Below are positions 16,353 to 48,107 of a stretch of 64,000 nt of DNA, one piece after another. The position numbers were made by a program, and so were the translations under genes. Under the pieces are notes generated by a model. The model worked only from the letters and a program-made list of their open reading frames with translations. It made no database searches and was not told the DNA's origin. Origin of the DNA: a virus. Position 1 is the stretch's first letter, and each line of letters opens with the position of its first letter. The stretch is from positions 109,963 to 173,962 of IMG/VR virus record IMGVR_UViG_3300032308_002246; one strand, given 5' to 3'.

Positions 16353-19300
16353 ATGGCAGCATATACACGCAAACAATATTCGGGCGCTGCTCGTAATACG
16401 ACTACAACAACACTCTTGACGAATGTTGGAACAACAGTTGACATTACAGCGACCACTGGATGGCCATCTATTGCTGGCATCCCTTTTTATGTTGTAATCA
16501 GCCCATCTTCAATCTACGAAGAAAAGTGTCTTGCAACCATATCTGGCTCAACCCTCACTCTTGATAGAGCAAAAGATGACACTACTGCGTCAGAGCACCC
16601 AATCGGCTCAGTTATTTACCCAGTATTTACCGCAAACGACGCAGATGAAGCAAACGAACTTGTCTCAAAACTTACTACTACAGGCGACCTTCTCACCACG
16701 GACGGAACCAATCTGCTCCGTTTGGGAGTTGGCGAAGATGGCTACTTTCTAAAAGCAAGTAGTTCTGCATCAGCTGGTATCGAGTGGGCCTCAATCCCGA
16801 CAATCAACAACCTCAATGACATTGGCGATGTAACAATCAATGATGTTGAAGAATCAGATTTTCTTGTTTACAAAGCCTCGGCTTCTGCATGGATTAACGA
16901 AACAATCCACTTCATCACCGTCTCCGACACAGAGCCAACTGATGAAATAAGACAAGGCGACCTGTGGTACAACTCAAGTGAACTTGAGCTTTATACCTAT
17001 TACTCAAACAATTGGGTGCAAGTAACCCTCACCCCAGAATTTCTGAAAGTTGAAGAACTTGACAACGTTTACATTGACAACGCAAATGCTGGCGATGTTC
17101 TAACTTTTGACGGCCTTGACTGGTACAACGACAATGTAGTCAGTCTTTTGGGGCCAGATATATCTGCGGAAACCGTAACGGCTTCAGTATTCACTGGAAA
17201 CTTAACTGGAAACTCCGACACGGCAACTGCGTTAGAAACACCACGGACAATATCCCTATCTGGTGATGTTTCTGGCTCGGTTTCTTTTGACGGCTCACAA
17301 GATGTTTCCATATCTGCAACAGTTCAAATAAACTCCATAACCCTTGGAACCGACACAACTGGCAACTATGTAAATGATGTCGTAGCTGGAACCGGAATCT
17401 CAGTTACTCACACACCTGGAGAAGGTTCATCAGCAACTGTCGCAATCAATGCAACACTAGACAACCTTTCAGATGTAACTGTTCCATCTCCAACCTCTGG
17501 AGATTTCTTGAAGTGGAACGGTACGGCTTGGGTTAATGACCCAATCAACCTTGGCACCGATACTGCTGGGAATTACATGTCTGACCTTACACAGGGCACT
17601 GGTGTAACGATTACCCACACACCTGGCGAAGGCTCAAATGCAACTATCGCAATTGGTCAAGCAGTAGCGACTTCTTCGTCAGTACAGTTTGCTGCTGTTA
17701 CTGCGCCACTAGTTGGCAATGCATCAACGGCTTCAGCATTGCAAACAGCACGGGCTATCTCGTTGACTGGCGATGTTTCTGGTTCTGTTTCATTTGATGG
17801 TTCTGCAAATGCAAGCATCACTGCAACGATTCAGCCAAACTCCGTAGCTTTGGGCACGGATACAACTGGCAACTATATGTCTGACCTCACACAAGGCACT
17901 GGTGTAACGATTACGCACACACCTGGGGAAGGTTCCAATGCAACCATTGCGATTGGACAGGCTGTTGCAACTAGTTCTTCAGTTTCGTTTGCAAGACTAG
18001 AAACTACGGGAGATGTTTTAGTCGGCGGAAATTTAACCGTCAATGGAACTACCACGACATTAAACACCGAGACGTTATTGGTTGAAGACAACATAGTTGT
18101 TTTGAACTCTGGAATTACAGGTTCACCAACACTTAACTCTGGAATTGAAGTTGAGCGTGGAACTTCGGATAACGTATCAATGCGTTGGAATGAGTCAACA
18201 GACCGCTGGGAATTCACTAACGACGGAAGTGCATACAATAACGTCCTTCTGAAGAGCGATATCAGCTTGAATGATATCTCTGACACAGTAATTACGTCTG
18301 CGGCAAACGGTCAACTACTCGAATTTGATGGAACAAACTGGGTTAATGCGGTTCGCCCATCCAGCGAGCCGATGGGGCACGAGAATAAAGCTGACAGCGT
18401 AATTTCGTTCAACGAAGGCACAAGAACATTCTCCATAGCACCAGCATCTACCTCTTTTACGGTTTGGTGTGCTGGAAAACGTTTCGTAAAGACAACAACA
18501 GAAACTGTTCAAATTCCAGATACATCTGGTTTGTATTATATCTACTACAACTCAAGCGGAGTGCTTTCATATAGAACTACATACTTCGTTTGGGATACAG
18601 ACGCACCAACTGCTTATGTTTACTGGAATGAAGTAGACAACAAGGCTTACTTCTTTGCTGATGAACGTCACGGTGTAACACTCGATTGGGCAACACACGA
18701 ATACCTGCACAGAACTCGCGGTGCAGCAATCGCTAATGGATTCGGTGCAAATAACTACATTCTTGATGGCAATGGTTCATTAGATTCTCACGCAAAACTA
18801 GATATTGCTAATGGAACATTCTTTGACGAAGACCTTCAAGTTGACATTGCACATTCCGCAACCCCAACAGCAAATACATGGGAACAAGTACTTCAAGGCA
18901 ATGCAGAGATTCCAGTTTTTTACAGACTAAATAATCACTGGGTAAAGGATTCCGCAACTGAATTCCCAATGAAGCAGGGAACCGACAGGCCAAGATATAA
19001 CCTTAATACTGCTGGAACATGGTCAACACCAGATGTAGCGAATAACCACTTTGGTGTGTCTTGGATTATTGCTACGAATAACCTGAATGAACCAGTTATT
19101 GCAATTCTTGGTCAGGGTTCTTACACTAATAACGGTTCAGCGCAAGCGGAGTTTTACGCTTCACTTGATTTAGATGGATTCCCAATCGTTGAGTTTCGCC
19201 CTCTTTACAAGATTATTTATGAGTGCAAGACTTCATACACAAATACCCCAAGCGCACGAATAACGGATGTTATTGACCTAAGAAGCGTCATTTCTTCAGA

Positions 19301-19952
19301 CCAGGGTGTAGGTACAACACCAGTTTCTGACCACGGTTCAATGACTGGTCTTGCTGATGATGACCACACTCAGTATTTAACCGATGCGCGTCATGATGCT
19401 CTTGACCACACAACGGCAATAGGTTCTGCTTCGCTTGACGACATCGGCAATGTCTCGGCTTCAGCTGCTGCTTCTGGAGACTTTTTAAAGTACGACGGAG
19501 CCAATTGGGTTAATGACCCAATCAACCTTGGCACCGACACTGTCGGCAACTATATGGTCAACGTGTCTGCAAGCACCGGACTCTCAATCTCTCACACTCA
19601 GGGTGAAGGTTCGACTGCGACAATTTCAACAACTGGTGTTCAGACGCTTGGCGCAAAGGCCGGCAACTACACGCTTGCTGCTGGTGATGCTGCAGAAACA
19701 ATCATTATTATGGACTCAAGCTCCGCCAACGACTTGACTGTCCCAAGCGCTTCAGCTGTTGCGTTCGGTACTGGCACAAGCATCACCGTTGTTCAGCGAG
19801 GTACTGGCAAGACAAGAATCCTTGCAGGAGCAGGAGTAACGCTCTTGGCAACTCCTGGTCTTTTCCTAAGGGCAAGATACTCTTCATGCACAATAGTCAA
19901 AACAGAAAATGCAAACGAGTGGTTTGTTATAGGTGACTTGGCGGCATCGTGA
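16353..19952 (+). CDS. Long tail fibre protein ending in the shared C-terminal adaptor-like domain
   Basis: Repeated fibre modules (L.DV...GD.L.WNG..WVN, LGTDT.GNY, RTISL.GDVSGS.SFDGS). C-terminus NYTL...ANDLTVP...WFVIGDLAAS. Confidence 0.85.
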   Translation: MAAYTRKQYSGAARNTTTTTLLTNVGTTVDITATTGWPSIAGIPFYVVISPSSIYEEKCLATISGSTLTLDRAKDDTTASEHPIGSVIYPVFTANDADEANELVSKLTTTGDLLTTDGTNLLRLGVGEDGYFLKASSSASAGIEWASIPTINNLNDIGDVTINDVEESDFLVYKASASAWINETIHFITVSDTEPTDEIRQGDLWYNSSELELYTYYSNNWVQVTLTPEFLKVEELDNVYIDNANAGDVLTFDGLDWYNDNVVSLLGPDISAETVTASVFTGNLTGNSDTATALETPRTISLSGDVSGSVSFDGSQDVSISATVQINSITLGTDTTGNYVNDVVAGTGISVTHTPGEGSSATVAINATLDNLSDVTVPSPTSGDFLKWNGTAWVNDPINLGTDTAGNYMSDLTQGTGVTITHTPGEGSNATIAIGQAVATSSSVQFAAVTAPLVGNASTASALQTARAISLTGDVSGSVSFDGSANASITATIQPNSVALGTDTTGNYMSDLTQGTGVTITHTPGEGSNATIAIGQAVATSSSVSFARLETTGDVLVGGNLTVNGTTTTLNTETLLVEDNIVVLNSGITGSPTLNSGIEVERGTSDNVSMRWNESTDRWEFTNDGSAYNNVLLKSDISLNDISDTVITSAANGQLLEFDGTNWVNAVRPSSEPMGHENKADSVISFNEGTRTFSIAPASTSFTVWCAGKRFVKTTTETVQIPDTSGLYYIYYNSSGVLSYRTTYFVWDTDAPTAYVYWNEVDNKAYFFADERHGVTLDWATHEYLHRTRGAAIANGFGANNYILDGNGSLDSHAKLDIANGTFFDEDLQVDIAHSATPTANTWEQVLQGNAEIPVFYRLNNHWVKDSATEFPMKQGTDRPRYNLNTAGTWSTPDVANNHFGVSWIIATNNLNEPVIAILGQGSYTNNGSAQAEFYASLDLDGFPIVEFRPLYKIIYECKTSYTNTPSARITDVIDLRSVISSDQGVGTTPVSDHGSMTGLADDDHTQYLTDARHDALDHTTAIGSASLDDIGNVSASAAASGDFLKYDGANWVNDPINLGTDTVGNYMVNVSASTGLSISHTQGEGSTATISTTGVQTLGAKAGNYTLAAGDAAETIIIMDSSSANDLTVPSASAVAFGTGTSITVVQRGTGKTRILAGAGVTLLATPGLFLRARYSSCTIVKTENANEWFVIGDLAAS

Positions 19953-20911: not shown

Positions 20912-20947
20912 TCTAAAAGACAATCAGAGATACAGTAGGATTTAATC

Positions 20948-21478
20948 ATGAGCAACGCTGAAGAAATTTGGATACCGCGAGAACCAACAGAATCAGAATA
21001 TACATTTCAAGGCTGGTTTAATTGGGAAAACAAATTTGGTGAATTTGGTACTCCTGGATACTGGGATTTTGTAGAACAAACAAAAATTCCGTCTGTTTTT
21101 GGGGACGATAATCCTAGAGATGTTTATTTCACGCTCTATAGACAAGACGGAGACGGCCTGCTTCTAGCAGTAATTCTTAGATACCGTGATGAATCAGGGG
21201 AGCTTCATCCACTTTTAATGCTGGTTCATCCAGACCATCGGGGGAAGGGAATTGCAACTCAAGTGCTTCTTCGCATGGAAGAAAAATTTATCAACGAAGA
21301 AGCCCATGTATATGGGTACACGGTAGAGGACTTTCGAGCACTACCAAGAGCAGAACGAGCCGCTTTGGTTATTCCTCCAAAATGGGACGTACCAACCAAT
21401 GAAGCTGGAGCGGGTTTTGCAACCCATGCAAGCAAGATGTTTTATACGGTTGAAAAAGATTTCACAGTAGAGCCGTAA
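20948..21478 (+). CDS. GNAT family N-acetyltransferase
   Basis: Acetyl-CoA motif A 'VHPDHRGKGIATQVL' and downstream 'N.AG..F'. Confidence 0.8.
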   Translation: MSNAEEIWIPREPTESEYTFQGWFNWENKFGEFGTPGYWDFVEQTKIPSVFGDDNPRDVYFTLYRQDGDGLLLAVILRYRDESGELHPLLMLVHPDHRGKGIATQVLLRMEEKFINEEAHVYGYTVEDFRALPRAERAALVIPPKWDVPTNEAGAGFATHASKMFYTVEKDFTVEP

Positions 21479-21479
21479 G

Positions 21480-21707
21480 ATGTCTGCCTATCAGGAGTGG
21501 AAGAAAAAACTTGGAGATACACGCCCGTGGGATGTTGTTAACCCAAACATAGAAAAAACCACAGATGAAGAGGCAGAAAGAAGATTTTCGATTTGCCGAG
21601 AATGTCCAAGCCTGCTTGCGGTCACCAGCCAGTGCAGAGAATGCGGATGCTTCATGAAGTTAAAGGTGAAGATACAAGAAGCAACGTGCCCCTTGCAAAA
21701 GTGGTAG
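21480..21707 (+). CDS. Small six-Cys protein (DUF6171-like), copy 1
   Basis: R..IC..CP.L.....C.ECGCFM..K......CP..KW. Confidence 0.7.
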   Translation: MSAYQEWKKKLGDTRPWDVVNPNIEKTTDEEAERRFSICRECPSLLAVTSQCRECGCFMKLKVKIQEATCPLQKW

Positions 21708-21734: not shown

Positions 21735-22322
21735 ATGAAGTACATCAACGTAAATGGCGTATGTGTTTACAGGAATGCAATTATCAATCCCTCTGAGATA
21801 ATAGAAGCCTCTGAGCTGTTAAGCATCTCGAAAGACAGCCGAGGCGATTGGACCAAATCGACAGTAATTGACACCGAGGGGAAGGTCTTTGTTTCTGAAG
21901 TAAGGACAAACCAGTTGATGTTCACCCCAACGCCAACTCAAAGGGGGGACGAGTCGTCGGCAGAGGTTATGCTGGCGAATAAAATTCACGAATATGTGAT
22001 TCCTTGTGTCCAAAACTTTGCGGCGAAATTTGGTCTTTCAATCAAGTTCCAATCTACAAACGGATATCAAATTCTCAAGTATTCAGTTAACGAACATTAC
22101 GTATCCCACCTTGATGATGGTGAAAAAACCAGACGGTACGCTTCTGCCGTTGCATACCTAAACGACGACTACGAAGGTGGCGAACTATATTTTCAGGATT
22201 TGAATTTCACATATCAGCCGGTAGCCGGGGATGTTGTAATTTTCCCATCTGGAGCACCATTTAGGCATGAGGCAAAACCCGTAATCAGCGGCATAAAGTA
22301 CTCAATAGCTAACTGGTGGTAA
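21735..22322 (+). CDS. 2OG-Fe(II) oxygenase, prolyl 4-hydroxylase-like
   Basis: HLD...YLNDDYEGGEL.F...H...KYS. Confidence 0.9.
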   Translation: MKYINVNGVCVYRNAIINPSEIIEASELLSISKDSRGDWTKSTVIDTEGKVFVSEVRTNQLMFTPTPTQRGDESSAEVMLANKIHEYVIPCVQNFAAKFGLSIKFQSTNGYQILKYSVNEHYVSHLDDGEKTRRYASAVAYLNDDYEGGELYFQDLNFTYQPVAGDVVIFPSGAPFRHEAKPVISGIKYSIANWW

Positions 22323-22384: not shown

Positions 22385-22567
22385 ATGCCAATCGTCTTCC
22401 CACAATCGCCGTCAATAAATGACGAATTTTCTGTTGCAGGTAAATCTTGGAGCTGGAACGGGTTCCGTTGGCAAAGATTTAAATCTGCGATAATTGACGG
22501 CGGGTTTGCCAACATTGAAATAAATGTTTCAGACGACGAACTAATTGCTGACGGAGGCGATGCTTAA
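22385..22567 (+). CDS. Small tail-associated protein
   Basis: 'FP.SP..ND.....K.W.WNG.RW' domain, also found at the start of 29775; 'DGG' motifs. Confidence 0.55.
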   Translation: MPIVFPQSPSINDEFSVAGKSWSWNGFRWQRFKSAIIDGGFANIEINVSDDELIADGGDA

Positions 22568-25500
22568 TGGCTTATAAGAAAATACTCTTTCGCCGCGATA
22601 CGTCTTCAAATTGGGCTAGCGCAAACCCTATTTTGGCTGCTGGTGAAATCGGTCTTGAGTCCAACACCAACAAGATAAAACTTGGTAATGGCTCGACTAG
22701 ATGGAATGCCCTGTCGTATTTTTACGGAAGTCTTGACACTACTGGAATTGACGCACTTAGCGACGTAGTCATAACAAGTGCACAAAATGGCGATTTTCTT
22801 CGCTGGAACGGAACTGCCTGGGTAAACGACCCGGTCAATCTTGGGGATGACACGGTCGGCAGCTTTGTCCAGAACCTTGTTGCTGGAACCGGCGTAACGC
22901 TAACCAACAACACTGGCGAAAAGGCTACTCCAACCGTGGCTATTGGCCAGGCTGTTGCAACTTCATCTTCTGTACAATTTGCCGCAGTTACTGCACCAGT
23001 TATCGGTAACGCAAGCACCGCAAGCTCGCTGCAAACAGCGCGAACAATTCAAGTTAGCGGCGATGTTTCTGGTTCTGCATCTTTTGATGGTTCACAAAAC
23101 ATAAACATCACTTCGGAAATCCAGCCAAACTCGGTAGCTCTTGGCACTGACACCACTGGTGATTACGTAACCTCACTTGTTGCTGGAACTGGCGTTACCC
23201 TTAGCAATAACTCAGGTGAATCAGCATCACCAACTATTGCAATTGGCCAAGAAGTAGCAACCTCATCATCCGTTACATTTGCTCACATTAATGGAAACGT
23301 AACAGGAAATTTGACAGGAAATGCCTCAACCGCTGCTGCACTACAAACACCTCGAACTATTTCTCTTACTGGTGATTTGTCTGGTTCTGTGTCATTTGAT
23401 GGTTCAAACAATGTTTCAATTACCACTACGATTGAACCAAACTCTGTAGCTCTTGGCACCGACACAACCGGAAACTACATGGCCGAAGTTACTGGTGGCA
23501 CTGGTATAACAGTTACCCACACCCCAGGTGAAGGTTCAAACGCAACAATATCAATCGGGCAGGCTGTAACAACAGCAGATACACCAACTTTTGCTGGAGC
23601 ATACCTAGACGCAATAAGAGTCGGTGTTACAAACGCTAATACGATTGACACTGCATCTGGTGGTTTGACTCTTGACTCAACTGGTGGAACAACAACTGTT
23701 GATGACAACTTGGTAGTTACTGGAACGCTGACAGTATCTGGTTCTGTTGCATACATAAGCACAACCAACTTAGAAGTTGGAGACAGTGTAATTATTCTTA
23801 ATCACGATGAAACTGGGTCTCCATCTCAGAACGCCGGTATAGAGATTGAACGCGGAACATCAACAAATGTCGTTCTTCATTACAACGAAACTTCTGATGT
23901 TTGGGAATTAACCAACAATGGTTCTACTTATTCTCCAATCGAAACTACTTCGACAGTAGAAACAAAGATTAAGCAACAGCTGTGGCTTAATGACGTATAT
24001 GCCGCAACAACTGGCGTGCTTCCAAACTCTCCTACATATACCGCTGGCAGCGCAGACGCAAACGGTGGAACTGGTGTTGGAGCAAAACTCACAGCAACAA
24101 CAAACGGAGAACTATCAATTGACGGCGCTCCAGCCGCTTTGAACTACCGAGTTCTAGTCAAGGACCAAGCCAACAATTTACACAACGGAATCTACAAAGT
24201 AACCGCAGCTGGTTCACCATCTACAACATGGGAACTGACAAGAGCAGCAGACTTTGATAACTCAACATTTGGTCAGGTTACTTACGGAAAATCAGTAAGA
24301 ATAGCGACTGGCGATATAAACATATTGCAAACTTTCATCCTCACGTCGTTTGGTACTGTTTACCTAAACGAGCTTGAGGAAATGGTTCACGTAATTGGGA
24401 CTGACCCAATTTCATGGTCTCAAGCGAGCGGCAAGGCAGTTCTGATTCCAGGCAATGGTTTGGAAATAACAAACAATGTTCTGGCGCTTCCATCAATCAC
24501 TCAGTCGAATACAGCATCAACGTCCGGTGGTTTTAATTTTGTACAGGGCGTAAACGTTGACTCATATGGTCGCTTACTTGGTGTTACAACAAATGATGTT
24601 CTTATTGACTTGGGCATAAATACTCAGGGCGACTATGTACAAAGCGTCTCTGCTTCAGTTAATACTGGCATTACAGTTTCTGGAACTGGCGAGGGCGCAA
24701 CTGTATCTGTTGGTTCAAATGCAACTCCAGACAACACAATTAACGCAATAGTTATGCGTGATGGAAGCGGAAACTTTATTGCTGGGAACATTACAGCAGA
24801 ACTGACTGGAAACGCTTCATCAGCGAACACCCTTTATGCCACACGTTCAATCGGTTTAACCGGAGACCTAAGCGGCTCTGTTTCGTTCGACGGTTCTCAA
24901 GATGTTGTTATAAATGCAATAATTGAATCAAACTCAATCGCTCTTGGTGGTGACACAACTGGCGACTATGTAAGCACGATTACTCAGGGCACTGGTGTAA
25001 CGGTGACTGGCGGTACTGGTGAGACATCAACGCCAACAATCGCAATTGGTCAAGATGTTGGCACCAGCTCTTCCGTAACTTTCGCACAAGTTAATGCACT
25101 TCTTGTCGGAAACGTAAATGGAAACGTAACTGGGAATGTCACTGGAAACGTTAATGGAAACGTCACTGGAACCCTAACTGGAAATGTTTTTGGAAATGTT
25201 ACTGGTAGTTCTGGAACCGTAACCTCAATAGGCACGCATGGACTGGATGCGCTTTCAGACGTAACTGCTCCGTCGCCAGCATCGGGCGAGTTCTTGAAAT
25301 GGAACGGCTCTGCTTGGGTGCCAGATGTAATCGATTTGTCAACAGACACAAGTGGAAACTTTGTTTCCTCAATCAATGCTGGAACTGGTGTTTCGCTTAC
25401 GAACGGTGTTGCCCAAGAAGCTGGAACACCAACCATAAACATTGGTCAGGCTATAGGCACAACAAATTCACCGTCGTTTGCAAACCTTTCAGTAGGTAAT

Positions 25501-26694
25501 GCACAGGTAAACGCAACAAATCTTACCTATAGCGGTGGCACCAACCTTGCTACAGTAACCGCCATTGACCACGGTCTTGCCATTGGGGCAAGGATAACGG
25601 TATCAGGAGCGACTCAAACTGGATACAACGGAACATATTCAATCGTTTCGGTTCCAACTTCTTCAACATTTACATACCAACCAGCAGTTGGTCCATCTGC
25701 AAACATAGCCTCTGGCACATATTTGGTTTATGTTGCTGGCGCTATAACTTTTGAAGGTTCAACTGATGACTCGTTTGAAACAACGATTGTTGCTACAGAC
25801 CCAACGGCAGACAGAATTATTTCTTTGCCAGATGCGACAACTCAATTAGTTGGTAGAGACACAACAGATACTCTTACGAACAAAACTCTAACAAGCCCAA
25901 CTATCACTGGTGTATCACCAGTAATCACTTTGGGTGGAGATTTGAGTGGTTCAGCTACATTCACAGACCTTGGCAACGCAACGCTTACAGCGACAATCGC
26001 TGCAAACTCTGTGGCTCTTGGAACAGATACAACCGGTAGCTACGTTGAAAGCCTTGTACAGGGTACTGGTGTTACAATCATCAACAACTCAGGCGAAAGT
26101 GCAACACCGACAATCTCCATTGGTCAGGCAGTTGGGACCAGTGCATGCGTTCAGTTTGACACTTTGACTGTAACAAACCTGTTTGCAACAAACAGCCAGT
26201 CAAGCAATGCGTCTGAGCTGAATGTTTCGGACAGCAAGATTGTTTTGAATGCAGGAACTACTGGCGCTCCAACGGTTAATGGTTCTATCATCATTGATAG
26301 AGGCTCAAGTGCAAGCGTTGAAATTCGATGGAACGAAACCAGTGACAGATGGGAAGCAACATCTGACGGCACGACATACACTCAAATAGCTGCTGGCGCA
26401 AAAATGACCATTGGAGAAACACCTCCTTCGTCGCCAGCAAATGGTGACTTCTGGTTTGAGTCGGACTCCGCTATCACGTTCGTTTATTACGACTCGTACT
26501 GGGTTCAAATTGGTTCATCCGGAATTGGTGCTGTAACAACGGCATCCGCTCCATCTAACCCTGCAAACGGCCAAATATGGTTCAATAGCACAACCGACGA
26601 AATGTATGTTTATTATGACGGCGCATGGGTCCTGGTAAATAGCGCAACTAACACCAGTGACATAGAAATTGCGTCTATCATGGGAGCGTATTAA
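22567..26694 (+). CDS. Long tail fibre protein with Mtd/hyaluronidase-N-like N-terminal domain
   Basis: N-terminal 'RRDT..NW...NPILA.GEIG.E..T..K.G.G...W..L.Y'. Same shaft modules as 16353, plus (GNV[TN])n. Confidence 0.85.
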   Translation: MAYKKILFRRDTSSNWASANPILAAGEIGLESNTNKIKLGNGSTRWNALSYFYGSLDTTGIDALSDVVITSAQNGDFLRWNGTAWVNDPVNLGDDTVGSFVQNLVAGTGVTLTNNTGEKATPTVAIGQAVATSSSVQFAAVTAPVIGNASTASSLQTARTIQVSGDVSGSASFDGSQNINITSEIQPNSVALGTDTTGDYVTSLVAGTGVTLSNNSGESASPTIAIGQEVATSSSVTFAHINGNVTGNLTGNASTAAALQTPRTISLTGDLSGSVSFDGSNNVSITTTIEPNSVALGTDTTGNYMAEVTGGTGITVTHTPGEGSNATISIGQAVTTADTPTFAGAYLDAIRVGVTNANTIDTASGGLTLDSTGGTTTVDDNLVVTGTLTVSGSVAYISTTNLEVGDSVIILNHDETGSPSQNAGIEIERGTSTNVVLHYNETSDVWELTNNGSTYSPIETTSTVETKIKQQLWLNDVYAATTGVLPNSPTYTAGSADANGGTGVGAKLTATTNGELSIDGAPAALNYRVLVKDQANNLHNGIYKVTAAGSPSTTWELTRAADFDNSTFGQVTYGKSVRIATGDINILQTFILTSFGTVYLNELEEMVHVIGTDPISWSQASGKAVLIPGNGLEITNNVLALPSITQSNTASTSGGFNFVQGVNVDSYGRLLGVTTNDVLIDLGINTQGDYVQSVSASVNTGITVSGTGEGATVSVGSNATPDNTINAIVMRDGSGNFIAGNITAELTGNASSANTLYATRSIGLTGDLSGSVSFDGSQDVVINAIIESNSIALGGDTTGDYVSTITQGTGVTVTGGTGETSTPTIAIGQDVGTSSSVTFAQVNALLVGNVNGNVTGNVTGNVNGNVTGTLTGNVFGNVTGSSGTVTSIGTHGLDALSDVTAPSPASGEFLKWNGSAWVPDVIDLSTDTSGNFVSSINAGTGVSLTNGVAQEAGTPTINIGQAIGTTNSPSFANLSVGNAQVNATNLTYSGGTNLATVTAIDHGLAIGARITVSGATQTGYNGTYSIVSVPTSSTFTYQPAVGPSANIASGTYLVYVAGAITFEGSTDDSFETTIVATDPTADRIISLPDATTQLVGRDTTDTLTNKTLTSPTITGVSPVITLGGDLSGSATFTDLGNATLTATIAANSVALGTDTTGSYVESLVQGTGVTIINNSGESATPTISIGQAVGTSACVQFDTLTVTNLFATNSQSSNASELNVSDSKIVLNAGTTGAPTVNGSIIIDRGSSASVEIRWNETSDRWEATSDGTTYTQIAAGAKMTIGETPPSSPANGDFWFESDSAITFVYYDSYWVQIGSSGIGAVTTASAPSNPANGQIWFNSTTDEMYVYYDGAWVLVNSATNTSDIEIASIMGAY

Positions 26695-26710
26695 ATGACT
26701 GGAGCAATCA

Positions 26711-33706: not shown

Positions 33707-33707
33707 C

Positions 33708-34370: not shown

Positions 34371-34379
34371 ACTGTTGGC

Positions 34380-38957: not shown

Positions 38958-39852
38958 TGTTAAAAAGGTAAACCTTTTATCAATTGACATATTTAAAACA
39001 AAAATTAATGACATTGACAACCAGCGGCTGTTGCAAGAGATTTTAAAATCAACCAATGATATTGATGATTCATTTATTGAAAATAAATATCATACTTATT
39101 ATGAAGACAAAAGGTATCCGTTTGGTTCTGCTGAGTCGGAAAAACTAATAAACAAGTTGGCAGAAGCAGTTTCTGGTTCTTTAAACAAAGAAATGGTGCT
39201 TAGTAGCATTTGGACACTAACTCTTGGTTATGGACAGTCGGTATCTGCTCACTCGCATAAATCAAACACTCACCTTCGTCCAGAAGAGTACTTTTCAATT
39301 GCCTATTACCCAAGCGCCCCCAAGGGAAGCGCAGACTTGATATTTATGGTTAATGCCGGAAACACTATAGAAAAGTCTGTTGAACTAACACCGGAAACTG
39401 GTGACCTAATTATTTTCAACTCTTATTTAATGCATATGACCAATAGGCACGGCAATAAAGAAGAACCTCGAGTCGTTATAAGCGCAAATTTTTCTCCGAA
39501 ATACCCGAATTCAACACCAACTCAGGATTGGAGCGCTTACGCAAGACACCCAGAGGACAGTGAAATTATCTACGATAAACGTTACTCATTAACGATACGT
39601 ACTCCCTTTGGCAAGGAAGATGCAACACTTGGAATCAAAGGTGATATTGCGGAAATATTTAATCCAACCGGAAAATACTTTATAGAAAAATTTATTGAAA
39701 CAGAAGATTCATTCAGTTCTGAATTTTCTGTTGATGTGCCAATGGTTACCACTGTTAGTATTCAGTTGTCGTTTACTGAAAACAGGGCCATTGAGGGCTC
39801 TATTTTTATTGGTGAATTTGCTAAATACCATGTGAGTGGGGTGGTGTTGTGA
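38950..39852 (+). CDS. Putative 2OG-Fe(II) oxygenase (HxH type) with C-terminal extra domain
   Basis: W.......HSH...S.AYY......L.F...P..GDLIIF.SYL.H......R.VISAN. Confidence 0.75.
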   Translation: MSDVKKVNLLSIDIFKTKINDIDNQRLLQEILKSTNDIDDSFIENKYHTYYEDKRYPFGSAESEKLINKLAEAVSGSLNKEMVLSSIWTLTLGYGQSVSAHSHKSNTHLRPEEYFSIAYYPSAPKGSADLIFMVNAGNTIEKSVELTPETGDLIIFNSYLMHMTNRHGNKEEPRVVISANFSPKYPNSTPTQDWSAYARHPEDSEIIYDKRYSLTIRTPFGKEDATLGIKGDIAEIFNPTGKYFIEKFIETEDSFSSEFSVDVPMVTTVSIQLSFTENRAIEGSIFIGEFAKYHVSGVVL

Positions 39853-40460
39853 GCGAGTCTATTTACAACATCCCAATAAATTCAATTGACGGAGATAAAG
39901 ATATGCTATCAGGCCTCAATGGAATGGTTACATTGTTCTTCCCTTTTGCTTCAAAAGCTGGGTATGAGCCAAAATGCAGCCGTGTTTGGTCTTATGCTAG
40001 AACTTCCAGAAAGCTCTGGGAGATGCAAAAGCTGCACGAAATGTTTGAAAACTTCTCTGTTGTTGGGGTACCAACAAATCAGTTTTGGAACATGGAGCCT
40101 TTGGAAAATGAACAGATATCAAAATTTATAAAAGAAACATACCCATTCGTCAAGTTTCCAATTACTGAAAAAGTGGTTATAAACGGAGATGACGAGCATG
40201 CAATCTGTTCGCATATGAAGGGTTATACCAAGCGACTTGTTGACGACACAAAAGCTGGTAACAGCTTTGCTGCATCACAGGGTCAAAATCTTGCTGGTGG
40301 AGCTGTACACAAAATACCCGCTTATTACGAAAAGTTTGTAGTCAGCAAAGAAGGTCGACAGGTCTACAGATTTGGGTTTGCTACTAAACCCTTGGCAGAC
40401 AGGGTTGAAACCACTGACATGGATATGACTGTAATTCAGGCAGTACAATCATTACTATGA
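39849..40460 (+). CDS. Glutathione peroxidase-like protein lacking the canonical peroxidatic Cys
   Basis: ASKAGY in place of ASxCG; VPTNQF...EP; FPITEKV.ING...H; YEKFVV...G. Confidence 0.7.
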   Translation: MSESIYNIPINSIDGDKDMLSGLNGMVTLFFPFASKAGYEPKCSRVWSYARTSRKLWEMQKLHEMFENFSVVGVPTNQFWNMEPLENEQISKFIKETYPFVKFPITEKVVINGDDEHAICSHMKGYTKRLVDDTKAGNSFAASQGQNLAGGAVHKIPAYYEKFVVSKEGRQVYRFGFATKPLADRVETTDMDMTVIQAVQSLL

Positions 40461-41317
40461 GCGATTTCAACTTCAAACCAGAGCATCTTGGTGGCGGAAC
40501 AGTAATTTTTAAGGATGCAATTAATGTTCCACAAAAAGAGGCATTTGAACATCTTGACCGGATGAAAGATGAAGCATTCAGTAACTCATACACAATCGTT
40601 AAGAATGAAGAAGGTAATCCACTCCACGCAATAAACAAAGGCGGGTTCATATATGACCTTGAAGATATGGATAGAGCTCCAATACGAATTGGCAACTTGG
40701 ATATTCCATTCTTTCAAGAATGTGAAAAAGCAATTTACGGTGCCCTACTTCGCTACATCGAGATGTTTCCAGCTGTACTGCAGTGCCTTTGGTGGAAGAG
40801 CCCTGGCCATGTTTTGCGTTATGCCAAGAGCGGTGGACTTGGTTTTCATGCAGACAATGATGTCAACTATAGATATGGGAGAGAACCCAAAGAGCAACAC
40901 GCAACCAGAAATGTGTTATCAGCTCTCGTGTATCTAAACGACTGCACCGATGATGAATCTATTGAGTACTCATTTTCCGGAGGTCACATGACGATTCCAT
41001 ACTTTGATATTGACCTAGCTCCATCAACTGGGGCAATAGTTCTTATGCCTGCAAACTATATTGGCGCTCATCAAATCCACGAAGTAACTAGGGGTGTTAG
41101 ATATTCATACTTGACATGGTTTGCTCAAGGCTCCGAAGACCCAGAACGCGGGTGTTCTCCGGCTCACCCAGAAGAGACCATGTTCCAGAACAACGGGCAA
41201 TGGTGGCTTCCATCAATTCTCAAGGATTACGAAAACTACATAATTGAAAAGTACGGTTCTTTGTTAAATGCCCCACAGGAAAAAGTAGATTACCTGAGCA
41301 GGGCCAACGACCACTAA
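40457..41317 (+). CDS. 2OG-Fe(II) oxygenase (LGGG subfamily)
   Basis: HLGGG.V.F; HADND; YLND; AHQI...RYSY. Confidence 0.88.
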   Translation: MSDFNFKPEHLGGGTVIFKDAINVPQKEAFEHLDRMKDEAFSNSYTIVKNEEGNPLHAINKGGFIYDLEDMDRAPIRIGNLDIPFFQECEKAIYGALLRYIEMFPAVLQCLWWKSPGHVLRYAKSGGLGFHADNDVNYRYGREPKEQHATRNVLSALVYLNDCTDDESIEYSFSGGHMTIPYFDIDLAPSTGAIVLMPANYIGAHQIHEVTRGVRYSYLTWFAQGSEDPERGCSPAHPEETMFQNNGQWWLPSILKDYENYIIEKYGSLLNAPQEKVDYLSRANDH

Positions 41318-41637
41318 ATCTTTTTTGTAAACATCTTTTCAGTTACAAATAAATGCTTTGCAAGAGTACTTGATGAGTGAATTATCCCAAGTGGATTTGG
41401 AACATTAAATTCGTTGAGGATGTCTGCCATCTTCCCGTTTGCAATGTCATCCCAAAAAGCCATCATTGCTTCCGCTCCAGTGCGGCCAGCTATGTAGTAT
41501 TTTTCTTCAATTTGACCCGGGAGAACATTGTCTGCCCAGTGGTTGTAACCATCTTTTTCTACCATGTTTGGCAGCTTGGCAAACTCCTGGACCATAATTT
41601 CTGTCCACCGATTGAATGCGTCGTTCTTTTCGCTCAT
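41314..41637 (-). CDS. Hypothetical protein, antisense within the oxygenase array
   Basis: 107 aa from ATG 41637 (MSEKNDAF...). Stop overlaps the stop of 40457. TATGAT lies 6 nt upstream. Confidence 0.6.
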   Translation of the reverse strand: MSEKNDAFNRWTEIMVQEFAKLPNMVEKDGYNHWADNVLPGQIEEKYYIAGRTGAEAMMAFWDDIANGKMADILNEFNVPNPLGIIHSSSTLAKHLFVTEKMFTKKI

Positions 41638-41655
41638 TCGGCTATCATACACCGT
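41638..41655. promoter_or_regulatory. Putative bidirectional leaderless promoter (overlapping -10 boxes)
   Basis: TATCAT (+, 41643-41648) lies 7 nt before ATG 41656. TATGAT (-, 41649-41644) lies 6 nt before ATG 41637. Confidence 0.6.
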
Positions 41656-42528
41656 ATGAATCAAGAGCATAAGTTCAACGATGTAGAGCCACATCACCTC
41701 GGTGGTGGGGTTGTCGTTTTCCGTGGAGCTATTTCATTTGATAACAAATGGGCAAGCTCCTTTGCTGAGAAGCAGGTATCCAAAGAACGTTCTCAGATGT
41801 ACGACGAGGCGGTAGACCCAGAGACGGGGGAGCCCGCATTTATAAACAGGAGCGGGTATTACTTTGATGCTGAGGGAATGAACCAGATGCCTCGACGTGG
41901 TTCACAAATACACATGGATGCGGATGAAGAAGTTAGAGGTTTCTTGGATTTTATTGAGAAATCAAAAGACTCATATCTCCTGAAGTACTTTTACCTTTTC
42001 CCTCTGGCATACAAAAATGTTTGGTGGAAAGTAAAGGGGCATCTTGTCTCGTACTCCGTTGAAAACGGCGGAAAGTTTTTGGGCCCACACTCCGACACGA
42101 GTGCTGACTATGCTTACGGTTTCCCCCATCCGCACGACCAGCTAGCTACTAGAAACACAATCTCATGCATTGTTTATCTAAATGATGATTTTGAGGGCGG
42201 ACATCACTACTTCAATTATCTTGAAATTGACTATAAGCCTTCTGCTGGTGACATTTTGATGTTTCCATCAAACTACATGGCAGCTCATGAAGTAAAGGAA
42301 ACAACGGGTGGAAGTCGATACACATATCTTGGTTGGTATTCGCACGGCACGCCAAATAAAGAGGTCAATGAGCATATAGTTGACCCAGTTGAGTTTCCAG
42401 AAATGGCAAAAACTGCAACCAATGTTTATATGCCAACGCTTCGTTATGATTTTGCCGAATACCTTAACAAAGTTGACCCAGGCAAAACATCATTTGGGCA
42501 CAGTCTGGTAGAAAGTATGCACTCATGA
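41656..42528 (+). CDS. 2OG-Fe(II) oxygenase (LGGG subfamily)
   Basis: HLGGGVVVF; HSD; YLNDDFEGG; AHEV...RY. Start moved to ATG 41656. Confidence 0.88.
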   Translation: MNQEHKFNDVEPHHLGGGVVVFRGAISFDNKWASSFAEKQVSKERSQMYDEAVDPETGEPAFINRSGYYFDAEGMNQMPRRGSQIHMDADEEVRGFLDFIEKSKDSYLLKYFYLFPLAYKNVWWKVKGHLVSYSVENGGKFLGPHSDTSADYAYGFPHPHDQLATRNTISCIVYLNDDFEGGHHYFNYLEIDYKPSAGDILMFPSNYMAAHEVKETTGGSRYTYLGWYSHGTPNKEVNEHIVDPVEFPEMAKTATNVYMPTLRYDFAEYLNKVDPGKTSFGHSLVESMHS

Positions 42529-43259
42529 TAGTAAAACATCTTGGGAATGGAATAATGCTTTTTGAAGATGTATTAGACACATCCCCCCTTGAGTCGTATC
42601 TTGAAAGAATTTTTGCAGAAAATTCAAGCGCTACAAACGGAGTCAATATTGACTCATCTCAAAATGACGGTGGATACACCGTACAGGAAGCTCATATTTC
42701 AGAATTACCAATTAGGTTTCACGGACTCTCCGGTAGTTCTGAATTTACAAAAGACGTCACAAAATCAATTGATGATGCGTTGTACAAGTGCTTAGTTGAG
42801 TACTGTCGAGTTTTCCCTTTAGCAATTGACTGTATAAAGTGGAGAACTAGCGGCCAGATTGCATCTTACTCGGTAGGGCAGAACATTGGCCCACATAGCG
42901 ACTGCGCGCTTCCGTATGATGCCGATGGCAATGTTTTAAACTCATTCCCTCTTCACAACACTCTTACTGGCTCAATGGTTTTAAGTGAAAATCACGAGGG
43001 TGGAGCAATAAAATTTAGACCCTGGGGGATAACTTCAAATCCAAAAATTGGCTCAGTTTTGATTTACCCATCATCTTTCATGGGTTGTCATGAAGTTGAG
43101 CAAGTAACTTCTGGTGTTAGAAATGTTTATCTGCAGTGGTTCTGTCAAGGAAAACCAGAGATGCAAATTTTAGAAAATAACAAATTGGACAATCTTGCAA
43201 CCGACGCAAAAAACTGCGGACAAGGCTATGTTCATGTTGGAATTATTCAACAGAATTAA
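42525..43259 (+). CDS. 2OG-Fe(II) oxygenase (LGGG subfamily)
   Basis: HLGNG; HSD; EGG.I.F; CHEV...R. Confidence 0.85.
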   Translation: MIVKHLGNGIMLFEDVLDTSPLESYLERIFAENSSATNGVNIDSSQNDGGYTVQEAHISELPIRFHGLSGSSEFTKDVTKSIDDALYKCLVEYCRVFPLAIDCIKWRTSGQIASYSVGQNIGPHSDCALPYDADGNVLNSFPLHNTLTGSMVLSENHEGGAIKFRPWGITSNPKIGSVLIYPSSFMGCHEVEQVTSGVRNVYLQWFCQGKPEMQILENNKLDNLATDAKNCGQGYVHVGIIQQN

Positions 43260-44326
43260 TACAAACTGTTGTGTTCTTTGCCGCGTTGCTCGTTATCGTA
43301 TACCACCTGAGAATGTGAGTAGGCTTTCTTTAGACCGTTTTCACCCTCAAGTGTTCTATTTTGGTAAACAGGGTTTGCCTTAAACATCCCGTTTGCGTCT
43401 TTTGCCGCATCGCCATTTCCCATGAATTCAGTTTTTAGGCAGTAATACTTGTAGTCATCGTACAGGTTGTCTATGAAGTGTGGTCTACACCATCCATCGT
43501 TGTCTTCAGGTTCAGAAATGTTGATTCCTACGTCGTCATGACTGCTTCCTTGACTAAAGAATTCAAGGTACCCATACCGGACACCCTTCTTTACTGGTTC
43601 AACACCGTGGGTGGCCATAAAGTTTGCTGGGAAAATAACCACATCACCAGTCTTTGGGACATTCTTTATTCCCAAGTAAGGGAATACAAGCTCTCCTCCG
43701 GTGTAGTTTTCTCCGTTTAGCTCTGATTCGTCTTCTACGCAGTCATTGAGATAGAGCATTACTGCTAGCACTTGGCGCATTTGTATTTGTCCGCGTGGAA
43801 CAAAACGCTCGCCGTTTGTTGCTCTGTAATTTGAGTCGTTGTCGTTGTGTATTCCAAGGAAAGCACCCTCGTCGTATCTCATGGCGTGACCCTTTGTGCG
43901 CCACCATATTGTTCCCAAAACCATAGGGAATTCATCAACATATCTAAGAAGACACTTGTAAATCATGTCTTCCCAGTACCTGAATACCTCAATCATTTCT
44001 GGTTTTGTTTCAGAGTTGACCACTTCAAGAAGTCTTACTGGGACCATCTGGACTTGTTCTGGCGAAAACTTATTACCGTCTTCATTAATGGCGTATAGAT
44101 TTCCCTCTTCGTCATGGTCCCATGTCCAGCGCTGTTCATGAGCTGATTTTGAATGTTCGTCAATGTACGGAAGAAGCGTACTTCTATCAATGTTTACTAC
44201 GCCGGGGAACCTGAGTACGCCGCCACCGAGGTCTTCGTATGGCATGTTAAAGATTTCAGAGACAGCTTCGTTGTTACGGACATCAGGTGTGGTTCCGTAA
44301 AATCTGTTGTCTTTTATCTTTTCCAT
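43256..44326 (-). CDS. 2OG-Fe(II) oxygenase (LGGG subfamily)
   Basis: DLGGG; HNDND; YLND; GGEL.F; THGV...RY. Start taken as ATG 44326. Confidence 0.88.
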   Translation of the reverse strand: MEKIKDNRFYGTTPDVRNNEAVSEIFNMPYEDLGGGVLRFPGVVNIDRSTLLPYIDEHSKSAHEQRWTWDHDEEGNLYAINEDGNKFSPEQVQMVPVRLLEVVNSETKPEMIEVFRYWEDMIYKCLLRYVDEFPMVLGTIWWRTKGHAMRYDEGAFLGIHNDNDSNYRATNGERFVPRGQIQMRQVLAVMLYLNDCVEDESELNGENYTGGELVFPYLGIKNVPKTGDVVIFPANFMATHGVEPVKKGVRYGYLEFFSQGSSHDDVGINISEPEDNDGWCRPHFIDNLYDDYKYYCLKTEFMGNGDAAKDANGMFKANPVYQNRTLEGENGLKKAYSHSQVVYDNEQRGKEHNSLY

Positions 44327-44328
44327 AG

Positions 44329-44931
44329 CTACTCTCGCCAAAATTGAATCAAACTGAATCTAGCACCTGCAGTCACTTCCGTAATTCCATGGTAGTTCAA
44401 GTCAGCGTTGAATATAAGTGCTTCTCCAGCTTTGAGTTTGATGTCTATGTCAATATTGGGGTTCTCCATCGTCCCCGTCAAATAGAACTGCGTGTGGCCG
44501 CCTTCGTAATCGTCGTTTAAGCATATAGCCGACGAGTAGAGAATCCTGCCCATGCCGTAATCGCCATCTCCACCGTCCGTATGAACCTTGTGGGATTGAC
44601 CAGTAGTTTGGCTTTTAATCGTGAAGCCTGGGTTTGGGAAAAACGGAACATCCAAGTTTATTCCTGTTTTAAGCATGTACTCGCTGGTTAGTCTTCTGTA
44701 TACCGCAGAGAGTATTGAAGCAAGCTTAAAGCCCCCAACGCTCGAAGAATTGCTCATTAAGTAGGTGGGAAAAATGTTGCGCTCATCACTGGAAGGACTT
44801 TTATATTCCAGCGAGTTTACAGAACTCATAATTTTTGATAAGAGTCGACCACTTATTAGTTGTCCTAGGTAAATTCCAGAACCATTTGGGCCTATTTCTT
44901 TCAACATTTCTACATTATCCGTCTTTACCAC
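44329..44931 (-). CDS. 2OG-Fe(II) oxygenase, P4H-like
   Basis: HTD...CLNDDYEGG...YHGI...RFS. Start uncertain (GTG 44931 assumed). Confidence 0.85.
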   Translation of the reverse strand: MVKTDNVEMLKEIGPNGSGIYLGQLISGRLLSKIMSSVNSLEYKSPSSDERNIFPTYLMSNSSSVGGFKLASILSAVYRRLTSEYMLKTGINLDVPFFPNPGFTIKSQTTGQSHKVHTDGGDGDYGMGRILYSSAICLNDDYEGGHTQFYLTGTMENPNIDIDIKLKAGEALIFNADLNYHGITEVTAGARFSLIQFWRE

Positions 44932-45152
44932 TTTCCAAGCGGGCATGTAGCGGCCTGAAGTTTTACTTTCAGTTTCATAAAACAACCACACTCTTTACAT
45001 TGCTTTGTTAAAGCCAACAAGCTTGGGCATGACTCGCAAATAGAATATCTACTAGAAGAAACTTCATCTGAAACGTGCTTTGCATTTGGATTCACTGCAT
45101 CCCAAGGGCGTGTTGTACCAAGTTTTTTCTTGTACTCCTGCCATGGCGTCAT
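44925..45152 (-). CDS. Small six-Cys protein (DUF6171-like), copy 2
   Basis: 75 aa MTPWQEYKKKLGTTRPWD...CKECGCFMKLKVK...CPLGKW; close paralog of 21480. Confidence 0.75.
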   Translation of the reverse strand: MTPWQEYKKKLGTTRPWDAVNPNAKHVSDEVSSSRYSICESCPSLLALTKQCKECGCFMKLKVKLQAATCPLGKW

Positions 45153-45156
45153 TTTT

Positions 45157-45471: not shown

Positions 45472-45485
45472 GCTTTTCTCCTAAT

Positions 45486-45800
45486 TTATTGTTGCGATTT
45501 TGCAATTTTGTATTTGGTGTAGTTGTTGTTTACAGAATACGAATAGGCTGTCAATGCTTTAATGTACACGTCAAGATTGCTCATATCAAGATTTCCGTGT
45601 TTATGAAATTCTTGTGCAGTTTTATTGGCAGAATCAGCAAAACCGACAGCAAGCTCATTTATTAATTCGCTAACGAACCATGGAAATTCATCAAAGATAG
45701 GAAATAATTTTTTATCTTCCGAAACATATATGTATTCATCACCGTATTTTATTAATACTGCAGTTGAAGTATGTACGACCGAAGGTTTTTTAGCGTTCAT
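45486..45800 (-). CDS. Hypothetical protein
   Basis: ATG 45800 (MNAKK) overlaps the upstream gene; in cassette 3. Confidence 0.5.
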   Translation of the reverse strand: MNAKKPSVVHTSTAVLIKYGDEYIYVSEDKKLFPIFDEFPWFVSELINELAVGFADSANKTAQEFHKHGNLDMSNLDVYIKALTAYSYSVNNNYTKYKIAKSQQ

Positions 45801-45957
45801 TTTCTTTGCCCCATTTGCCAATAGGGCATTCAGCTGATTTTACATGTGTTTTTATTCTCATAAAACAACCGCACTCTTTGCATGTATATGTTCTCTTAAA
45901 GAGTCTTGGACACTGAGAACATATATCGAGTCTTTTTTTGGCGTAATCTATTTCCAT
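45790..45957 (-). CDS. Small six-Cys protein (DUF6171-like), copy 3; not in the ORF track
   Basis: Manual translation: MEIDYAKKRLDICSQCPRLFKRTYTCKECGCFMRIKTHVKSAECPIGKWGKENER (55 aa). Confidence 0.75.
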   Translation of the reverse strand: MEIDYAKKRLDICSQCPRLFKRTYTCKECGCFMRIKTHVKSAECPIGKWGKENER

Positions 45958-45969
45958 AAGCAATGATTA

Positions 45970-46917: not shown

Positions 46918-48107
46918 GTTGTAAGGTTCCCTACCGCCACCCATGTATTTGTTGCTCGCTTAATCAATGTAGCACAAGCCCATTGACCCTGAAGTTTTAG
47001 ACCAGAATCATAAGCATTTATGGTTACGCCACTTCCCTGCAGTGTTACCAAATATGTGCCGGTTGTTTGAAGAACATCGACTCTGTCGCCAATAGCAAAG
47101 TTGGCGTCATTTGCCGATGTTATTGTGACAGTAACATTTGCTGATGTCGGGCCAACTTCAATAAGTTTTCCGAGGTCGGCAACAAGTATGTTGTAATTAT
47201 TCGATGTTAGAGTTACCGCTGTTCCAGCACCAGTTGACCTAAAACCAGCGCGCGCCGCTCCAGCAGCAAGGTCTGTTGTGGAAACAGAGTTTGCTAAGTT
47301 TAATTTTGAATACGAAATTGATGCTGACGCACTAATATCGGAATCAACAATAACACTGGCTGAAATCGCTGTAACACCAGTGTCTGAAATTGTTACATCT
47401 CCAGACTCCGCAACGGCAGTCGGAACGCCAGAAGAGTTGTAGACAATAATGTTTCCAGCAGTGCTTGTTGCCAATTTTGACAAAGCAATAGACGCAGATG
47501 CGCTTATGTCTTCGTTGACAATAGTTCCATTTACTATATTTGCTGATGCAATAGTTATTGCGGTTGGGAGTGCCCCTGTAGCAAGTTTTGACAAATCAAT
47601 AGACGCAGAAGCATTTATATCAGCATTGACAATTGTTCCGTCAAGAATTTTATCACTTGTAACTGAACCAGTTGCAAGTTTTGCTTCTGTTATAGCGCCG
47701 TCTTCAACTTCAGCTGTTTGAACTTCTCCTGAACCACCGGTTATGACCCAATCATCGCTTGTTCTTTTAATTAAGGTTACTCTTGTCCATTGAGATGAGA
47801 TTGTCGTTAGACCGCCCTCGGCTGCAACTGTTACGCCTGGTGCACCAGCAATACTCAATGAACCTGTAGAAACGAGAAGAACATCAACCCTGTCTCCAAT
47901 TTCAAAAGTAACAGCGGCGTTGGTCGGTATTGTCAGAGTAATTGACCCAGAGTTTGAGAACTCCAAAAGCTTTCCTCTGTCGGTAGCTACAAGTGTGTAG
48001 CTTGTTCCAGTCTGGACATTTTTTGTAAAATTAAAATCGCTTGCCTGGAGCGTATTCATCTGTGAGGCCGTTAGTGTCTGGCCAGCTGCAAACGTCTGAA
48101 TTGTCAT
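46914..48107 (-). CDS. Short fibre/adaptor with two copies of the shared domain (cassette 3)
   Basis: SYTLVATDRGK...WVITGG and YNILVADLGK...TWVAVGNLTT flank 'IVN.DI.ASASI..SKL' repeats. Confidence 0.75.
   Translation of the reverse strand: MTIQTFAAGQTLTASQMNTLQASDFNFTKNVQTGTSYTLVATDRGKLLEFSNSGSITLTIPTNAAVTFEIGDRVDVLLVSTGSLSIAGAPGVTVAAEGGLTTISSQWTRVTLIKRTSDDWVITGGSGEVQTAEVEDGAITEAKLATGSVTSDKILDGTIVNADINASASIDLSKLATGALPTAITIASANIVNGTIVNEDISASASIALSKLATSTAGNIIVYNSSGVPTAVAESGDVTISDTGVTAISASVIVDSDISASASISYSKLNLANSVSTTDLAAGAARAGFRSTGAGTAVTLTSNNYNILVADLGKLIEVGPTSANVTVTITSANDANFAIGDRVDVLQTTGTYLVTLQGSGVTINAYDSGLKLQGQWACATLIKRATNTWVAVGNLTT

Follow-up and report, generated by a model that had tools for sequence, protein, structure and literature searches.

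Tail type of candidate fibre-tip proteins predicts the enzyme genes that follow them in an uncultured lineage of T4-like phages

Why would a phage keep oxygenase, thiol peroxidase-like and acetyltransferase-like genes directly behind the genes of its tail fibres? The question is posed by the last 64 kb (64,000 nucleotides, positions 109,963 to 173,962; hereafter the window, whose own numbering is used below) of the IMG/VR virus record IMGVR_UViG_3300032308_002246, a genome of 173,962 bp with direct terminal repeats and a completeness rating of 100%. Three times in the window, a fibre gene ending in a common domain, here called the knob, is joined closely to a small gene for a putative tip protein, with enzyme genes behind it. 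An earlier note on this DNA had proposed that the tips dock on the common domain and are chemically matured by the adjacent enzymes. Comparison with about 240 related metagenomic loci shows that the tail type of a tip predicts the family of the enzyme gene that follows, and the phage therefore probably modifies its own host-binding proteins.

Four tests were made, on loci collected through the knob domain (80), through DUF6065 (37) and through DUF6171 (66 usable), and on tips dereplicated by distinct tail sequence. In the dereplicated test, following genes were counted within 1.5 kb. Cysteine-rich tails (n = 44) were followed by DUF6171 in 35 cases, by an oxygenase in 27 and by a GNAT acetyltransferase-like gene in 10, whereas (PPxF)n tails that lack cysteine (n = 43) were followed by DUF6171 only once and by an oxygenase 40 times. 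Within the domain-selected set alone, DUF6171 comes after 8 of 15 Cys-rich versus 1 of 21 (PPxF)n tips (Fisher p = 0.0015), and the ox2 subfamily of oxygenases after 18 of 21 (PPxF)n versus 2 of 15 Cys-rich tips (Fisher p = 2e-5), p-values that overstate independence because the counts share common ancestry and IMG/VR is redundant. The enzymes are thus linked to the tips beyond co-location, as the earlier note had supposed.

The arrangement of the loci conforms to a common plan. Most of the 80 domain-found loci read knob gene, tip, conserved oxygenase array. A knob-ending gene lies at most 7 kb upstream of DUF6065 in all 37 loci that have at least 7 kb of upstream DNA, and a (PPxF)n open reading frame (ORF) is also present in 34 of these 37. 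Among the DUF6171-found loci, the knob gene stands no more than 3.5 kb upstream in 51 of 66, the upstream tail has at least four cysteines in 35 of 66, and an oxygenase is found just downstream in 33 of 66. At least six tip architectures retain an enzyme neighbour. Within the limits of the literature search, no paper tied phage genes resembling prolyl 4-hydroxylase (P4H) to fibre tips, and none named DUF6171.

The knob domain, ~100 amino acids (aa) long and of β structure, was identified by alignment and hidden Markov model (HMM) in three fibre proteins of the window, as previously claimed. P0001 (16353-19952, plus strand) is a long fibre protein of 1199 aa with PHROG tail-fibre and virion matches and a knob at aa ~1095-1199; P0002 (29775-30554, plus strand) is short, with 259 aa and a knob at aa ~155-259; P0003 (46914-48107, minus strand) has 397 aa. 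The last protein carries a knob at both ends (aa 20-128 and ~290-397), since a fourth copy, overlooked earlier, sits at its N-terminus. The copies are 26-50% identical to that of P0001 and share 15 invariant columns. Scanned with the HMM, the complete genome of 173,962 bp showed no copy besides these four, and no Pfam family matches the domain. The knob profile nevertheless retrieved 27,311 cluster representatives (50% identity) at E<1e-3, with tandem arrays of up to 22 copies, and the domain terminates "minor tail proteins" of Gordonia, Shewanella and Brevundimonas phages. In every domain-found locus examined, the knob ends 0-2 aa before the stop codon. The gene that follows is mostly tightly coupled (-31 to +30 nucleotides, nt) and highly variable, encoding FN3, PASTA-(PPFF)n, Gly-rich or jelly-roll proteins that often begin with a short hydrophobic or MIPG-like peptide. 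One such arrangement has escaped annotation: in Shewanella phage S0112 (L003), a 749-aa ORF at 5315-7564, missing from the GenBank record, lies directly behind a 143-aa knob protein and overlaps the end of its gene, like coupled tips elsewhere.

Gene coupling suggests a physical pair of knob and tip; the adaptor role previously assigned to the common domain gains no support from the predicted fold. The AlphaFold2 (AF2) model of the P0002 knob, with a predicted local distance difference test (pLDDT) score of 90.8, has its best match in the C-terminal knob of gp52, the trimeric capsid spike of Pa223 (Z 13.4 over 104 aa). Next come XD1 of CBA120 TSP4 and its relatives, with Z 8-10, and glycan-binding repeats found in CpaA and StcE. 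The KP1 baseplate protein scored Z 9.7 and residues 79-180 of CBA120 TSP4 scored Z 8.5, the whole domain being covered. The match thus falls on XD1 (residues 80-178), which is described as a spacer, XD2 and XD3 being the docking modules (PMC8825819). Judged from the model, the fold alone does not support an adaptor role. Docking of a tip on the knob is plausible in view of the C-terminal position of the knob and the coupling of the next gene, yet the nearest solved folds are a terminal knob and a spacer; we regard such docking as nearly evenly balanced, leaning slightly towards its not occurring.

The three tip genes encode proteins of 315-344 aa. Tip 1 (P0004, 19949-20911, plus strand) begins with an SGGK-containing N-terminus, continues with FN3 domains (Pfam fn3 E 2.6e-17) and ends in a tail with two to three SPPPP repeats and 12 Cys within the last 105 aa; its orthologues bear different Pro-rich or Cys-rich tails. 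Tip 2 (P0005, 30558-31592, plus strand) has the same type of N-terminus, three FN3-like domains (fn3 E 1.8e-11) and a tail of 16 PP[FYR]F units closed by a lysine. These 16 units are written by 14 distinct 12-nt units, which indicates that the repeat is maintained at the protein level. Tip 3 (P0006, 45970-46917, minus strand) is a 315-aa protein starting at MIPGIV, with a ConA-like lectin jelly roll and a hypervariable loop with 16 Cys within aa 118-195, as seen from an alignment of 37 homologues, an AF2 model in which the loop has low confidence, and fold matches. Against the PDB, Foldseek gave weak matches to lectins and carbohydrate-binding modules only (E at least 1e-3); a viral structure library gave a clearer result, a resemblance to actinophage tail and receptor-binding proteins. 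The low-complexity segments were therefore essentially as first described. The N-termini had also been called related, and this holds for tips 1 and 2, which are homologous through the common SGGK motif and the first FN3-like domain; tip 3 shares only the MIPG start with them, is otherwise unrelated, and gave no match to the fn3 profile.

The junctions reported earlier likewise stand: a GTGA overlap between P0001 and tip 1 (19949-19952), a 3-nt gap between P0002 and tip 2 (30554/30558), and an ATGA overlap between P0003 and tip 3, the third provided that tip 3 starts at MIPGIV (46917), a start backed by 36 homologues. No Pfam or PHROG match to a gp38-type adhesin was obtained for any of the three tips. 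A role of the tips as fibre chaperones (Tfa/gp38-like) was considered and rejected as the principal interpretation, since the FN3 and lectin folds and the hypervariable tails suggest adhesins on display.

In total, the window encodes one GNAT protein, three DUF6171 proteins, three GSHPx-like thiol peroxidases, one DUF6065 protein and at least 13 2-oxoglutarate (2OG) oxygenases of PF13640/PF13759 type. Behind tip 1, on the plus strand, come the GNAT gene (20948-21478; PF00583, 27.7 bits against a cut-off of 20.7; present at the same position in loci L005-L009), DUF6171 copy a (21480-21707; 75 aa with six conserved Cys by alignment; PF19668, 36.6 bits) and ox1 (21735-22322), a P4H-like 2OG-Fe(II) oxygenase (PF13640 E 3.3e-15) with an HxD...H...K motif whose best PDB sequence matches are to the Bacillus anthracis P4H. 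This set is wedged between two fibre genes. Tip 2 is followed after 3 nt by two plus-strand GSHPx-like genes, gpx1 and gpx2 (31596-32174 and 32171-33064; PF00255); the active-site Cys of gpx1 aligns with that of yeast Hyr1/Gpx3. Next on the same strand are ox2 (33089-33706), ox3 and ox4 (together 33089-35045; PF13640; PDB sequence matches to P3H1, LH3 and P4H), then a 182-aa protein with a weak Rossmann-like match (PF02826 E 9e-4, below the cut-off) and DUF6065 (35045-36284 for the pair; PF19541 E 5e-43). The plus-strand array continues at 36287-43259 with ox5, small ORFs, a 248-aa protein (37540-38286), ox6, ox7, the third GSHPx-like gene, gpx3 (39849-40460), ox8, ox9 and ox10. Convergent with it on the minus strand are ox11 and ox12 (43256-44991; PF13640), and the minus-strand segment 44925-45963 holds DUF6171 copy b (44925-45152; start probably 45152), proteins of 104 and 111 aa, and, directly behind tip 3, DUF6171 copy c (45790-45963).

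Profiles thus bore out the GNAT, DUF6171, GSHPx-like, DUF6065 and oxygenase assignments made earlier; the methyltransferase proposed at 37540-38286 found no Pfam or PHROG match, and its best PDB match had E 0.27. The three DUF6171 copies score 36.6, 26.8 and 26.2 bits against a cut-off of 27, one clearly over and one just below it, and one copy reaches the cut-off (27.2) only when neighbouring in-frame matches are counted; they nevertheless have 21 invariant columns in common, with the Cys pattern CxxC...CxxCxC...CP. The PF00255 cut-off is exceeded by gpx1 and gpx3, with gpx2 at 25.2 versus 27, and the peroxidatic Cys of gpx1 aligns with the Hyr1 active site. For DUF6065, a PDB sequence search returned nothing and an atlas look-up returned only its own, mostly viral, family.

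Ten PF13640 matches exceed the curated cut-off in the genome, all but one of them inside the window. The HxD/E...H iron triad with a basic, 2OG-binding residue ~10 aa after the second His is clear in ox1, ox2, ox4, ox5, ox8 and ox12; the simple HxD/E...H pattern did not settle the remaining oxygenases. Most of the oxygenases appear to keep HxD...H...[RK]x[ST]. By sequence, the best matches of ox1, ox2 and ox4 among solved proteins are collagen-type P4H, P3H1 and LH3, and the window oxygenases may hydroxylate peptidyl proline. In the cyanomyoviruses S-SCSM2R (L242) and Syn30 (L243), the oxygenases nearest ox4 are interleaved with recombinase, helicase and DNA polymerase genes.

Action of the oxygenases on protein proline is indicated most strongly by the pairing, in related loci, of P4H-like and GT60 genes beside Pro-rich tails. 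Directly behind DUF6171, relatives carry PF11397/GT60, GT61, radical SAM/SPASM and sugar-nucleotide epimerase or dehydratase genes; when all loci are counted, 30 have GT60, 17 have radical SAM and 15 have an epimerase, and none of these occurs in the window, where accordingly no GT60 (PF11397) gene adjoins a P4H-like gene. GT60 is the family of Gnt1, the GlcNAc (N-acetylglucosamine)-transferase that acts on hydroxyproline of Skp1 (PMC3515798, PMC11570480). In one close relative (L178, whose contig also yielded L009 and L092), the order is Cys-rich tip, small ORF, DUF6171, radical SAM, GT60, ox12, ox11; at the equivalent place, the window has DUF6171 copy c, two small genes, DUF6171 copy b, ox12 and ox11. 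A conserved ORF of ~80 aa without a Pfam family (..FAFVVDGEVA..SSNP..GWxYDG..F) usually separates the Cys-rich tip from DUF6171 in these loci, for example at L183:3743-3988, L174:3765-4001 and L178:3716-3961.

From the observed gene order, coupling, domain identities and association of tail type with enzyme, we infer the substrates, the chemistry and the docking as follows. The three cassettes would be copies of a modular host-recognition unit composed of a fibre gene ending in the widespread knob of trimeric fibres, a second gene that is translationally coupled to it and encodes a small surface protein, and genes for enzymes acting on that protein. The surface protein would be built either of FN3 domains that carry a C-terminal tail rich in Pro, Cys or both, or of a lectin-like jelly roll with a Cys-rich loop. 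P4H-like 2OG oxygenases would hydroxylate prolines in the SPPPP and (PPxF)n tails, a modification that could stiffen polyproline-II stalks or create attachment sites, and DUF6171, the GSHPx-like thiol peroxidases and GNAT would help to mature the Cys-rich knots. In relatives, GT60, GT61 and radical SAM/SPASM enzymes may glycosylate or cross-link the tips. The fibres would then display the modified tips, perhaps with the knob domain as their holder, and the tips would diversify receptor binding or virion surface chemistry. That phage-encoded enzymes modify the virion tip proteins is, as judged from sequence, somewhat probable. A broader version is tentative, and we consider it possible though rather unlikely: a large, uncultured aquatic T4-like lineage would run a eukaryote-style adhesin maturation in the bacterial cytoplasm, in which prolines would be hydroxylated, some members would also glycosylate the hydroxyproline, and DUF6171, together with thiol peroxidases or radical SAM enzymes, would form Cys knots or cross-links. 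In this version, the oxygenase expansions would tailor hypervariable tip tails, and the knob would be a universal socket for exchangeable tips that are encoded separately.

Several observations weigh against modification of the tips. The sequence matches of the oxygenases to the PDB are weak (E 1e-4 to 1e-6), and at least 13 oxygenases are far beyond the need of three substrates. The window has neither a glycosyltransferase nor a radical SAM enzyme. To our knowledge, PPxF is not among the known P4H recognition motifs. The knob fold matches a terminal knob and the XD1 spacer, the XD2/XD3 docking modules not being among the matches. All comparison loci are metagenomic and belong to one broad T4-like lineage with inherited gene order, drawn from a redundant database. 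Finally, cultured marine cyanomyoviruses place their nearest 2OG oxygenases among replication genes, not fibre genes, and the roles proposed for these enzymes concern 2OG and nitrogen status (NtcA) and DNA repair (PMC3037559). The last observation, the excess of oxygenases over candidate substrates and the packing of nearly all oxygenases of the genome into one 24-kb stretch favour the explanation that tips and oxygenase arrays simply gather in a hypervariable T4-like region, the oxygenases acting on host proteins, nucleic acids, metabolites or the 2OG pool. Such mere co-location appears unlikely; it leaves unexplained why tail type predicts the neighbouring family, why Cys-rich tips have DUF6171 behind them in 35 of 44 cases, why GT60, GT61 and radical SAM/SPASM genes join the same cassettes, and why a set of three enzymes stands between two fibre genes.

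The enzymes might instead modify the long fibres, or host surface polymers during adsorption or lysis, the tips being ordinary unmodified adhesins. Long fibre genes do adjoin the same enzymes, and the GSHPx-like proteins could merely clear peroxide from uncoupled oxygenase turnover. This we find quite improbable, as the association follows the tail type of the small tip and not the fibre body, and the fibre proteins of the window have no Pro-rich or Cys-rich low-complexity tracts. Resemblance to ribosomally synthesized and post-translationally modified peptides (RiPPs) raises a further alternative, that the tails are core peptides on FN3 scaffolds which are tailored and cleaved off free and are not displayed on the virion. 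The tails are indeed short, hypervariable, and Cys-rich or repetitive, radical SAM/SPASM and small Cys-rich partner genes adjoin them in related loci, and some tips end in Hint/intein-like self-processing domains. Their carriers, in contrast, have FN3 or lectin-like folds, as virion surface proteins typically do, and their genes are translationally coupled to those of the fibres, and no protease, leader or recognition element was found, although no test dedicated to RiPP clusters was made; release of free peptides is therefore very improbable. Tip modification by the adjacent enzymes is the reading retained below.

Virus-encoded modification of virion proteins is already known. Eriksson and colleagues reportedly described, in 1999, a prolyl 4-hydroxylase of chlorovirus PBCV-1 that acts on Pro-rich viral sequences. 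The likeness is that the virus encodes both a P4H-type 2OG oxygenase and the Pro-rich repeat proteins proposed as its substrates, but PBCV-1 is a eukaryotic virus with one enzyme and no genetic linkage to the substrate, whereas the phage here has more than 10 paralogues in arrays right behind fibre-tip genes, with neighbours specific to tail type. Virion glycosylation of the Che8 type in mycobacteriophages, said to have been described by Freeman and colleagues in 2023, is similar in that virion proteins are modified on their C-terminal tails by phage enzymes whose genes adjoin structural genes. In that system, capsid and tail-tube proteins are targeted and glycosyltransferases are the only enzymes; here the candidate targets are fibre tips and the candidate enzymes are oxygenases, GNAT, DUF6171 and thiol peroxidases, with no glycosyltransferase in the window.

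The pairing of P4H with GT60 (PF11397) found behind tips in related phage loci resembles the Skp1 pathway of Dictyostelium and Toxoplasma, in which the cytoplasmic P4H PhyA works with the GT60 enzyme Gnt1 (PMC3515798, PMC11570480), but substrate, organism and purpose differ, and the GT60 partner is absent from the window. A fibre gene followed by a separately encoded distal protein recalls both the gp38-capped fibres of T2/S16 and the branched CBA120 TSP/T4 gp10 complexes, and the knob has the fold of XD1 in TSP4, gp10 and gp9. However, the tips have no sequence relation to gp38, and XD1 is regarded as a spacer, with XD2 and XD3 as the docking modules (PMC8825819), whereas the knob best matches the Pa223 spike knob. 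The SPPPP repeats of tip 1 beside a P4H-like gene also resemble the Ser-Pro4 motif of extensins among plant and algal hydroxyproline-rich glycoproteins; the likeness does not go beyond the motif, no arabinosyltransferase is present here, and the host is bacterial.

If tip modification is correct, the link to tip substrates would give the oxygenase arrays of at least one lineage a concrete, testable role, would extend post-translational modification of virions from mycobacteriophage capsid glycosylation to hydroxylation and cross-linking of host-recognition proteins, and would provide a first functional context for DUF6171 and DUF6065. Should the broader maturation scheme hold, the long-unexplained expansions of 2OG-Fe(II) oxygenases in such phages would serve the tailoring of tip tails. 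Together with the coupled gene behind it, the knob may offer adhesins a general plug-in point, a possibility relevant to predicting and engineering phage host range in laboratory systems.

By its sequence, the source is a T4-like phage of an uncultured lineage, since a 918-aa virion structural protein (27016-29772, plus strand; phrog_5838 E 1e-269) is ~44% identical to virion proteins of the Synechococcus myoviruses S-RSM4 and S-PM2 (tblastn), PHROG matches identify baseplate and fibre genes in the window, and megablast of 20 kb against GenBank phages gave zero matches at the DNA level. Neither psbA nor hli was found in the whole genome, DUF6065 had zero tblastn matches in GenBank phages, and the cassette was not seen in a synteny comparison with S-PM2. 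For the T4 late-promoter consensus TATAAATA, the window has one occurrence against 1.7 expected, from which no timing follows. Besides the knob-bearing proteins, the window encodes a second long fibre protein (22567-26694, plus strand; 1375 aa), which has PHROG tail-fibre matches and no match to the knob domain, and, immediately before the first fibre gene, a strongly repetitive structural protein of 1111 aa (12994-16329; phrog_23524 in seven stretches, E 2e-127).

Two further peculiarities concern the tips of related loci. In L013, L037, L062, L063 and L082, a Hint/intein-like end (..THNK*) replaces the Pro-rich or Cys-rich tail, with sub-threshold Pfam matches to Intein_splicing and Hint_2 (E 2e-4 to 3e-3); in all of these loci except L082, the tip is nevertheless followed by an oxygenase. 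Loci L022, L034, L036, L042, L052, L070, L071, L105, L139 and L145 have a PASTA-(PPFF)n tip gene divided between two frames. In these genes (e.g. L042:10291-10752), an ATG beside the fibre stop opens ~22 codons and the conserved body continues in the +1 frame without a start of its own, with CGGA at the junction in every case (NNN CGG A read on as GGA). A tRNA search with aragorn returned six, all ordinary, and nothing to account for this junction in the relatives. From the sequences, the split genes look like a conserved programmed +1 frameshift. The same PASTA-(PPFF)n protein is encoded in a single frame in L016 and L048, and tip 2 of the window is also read in a single frame.

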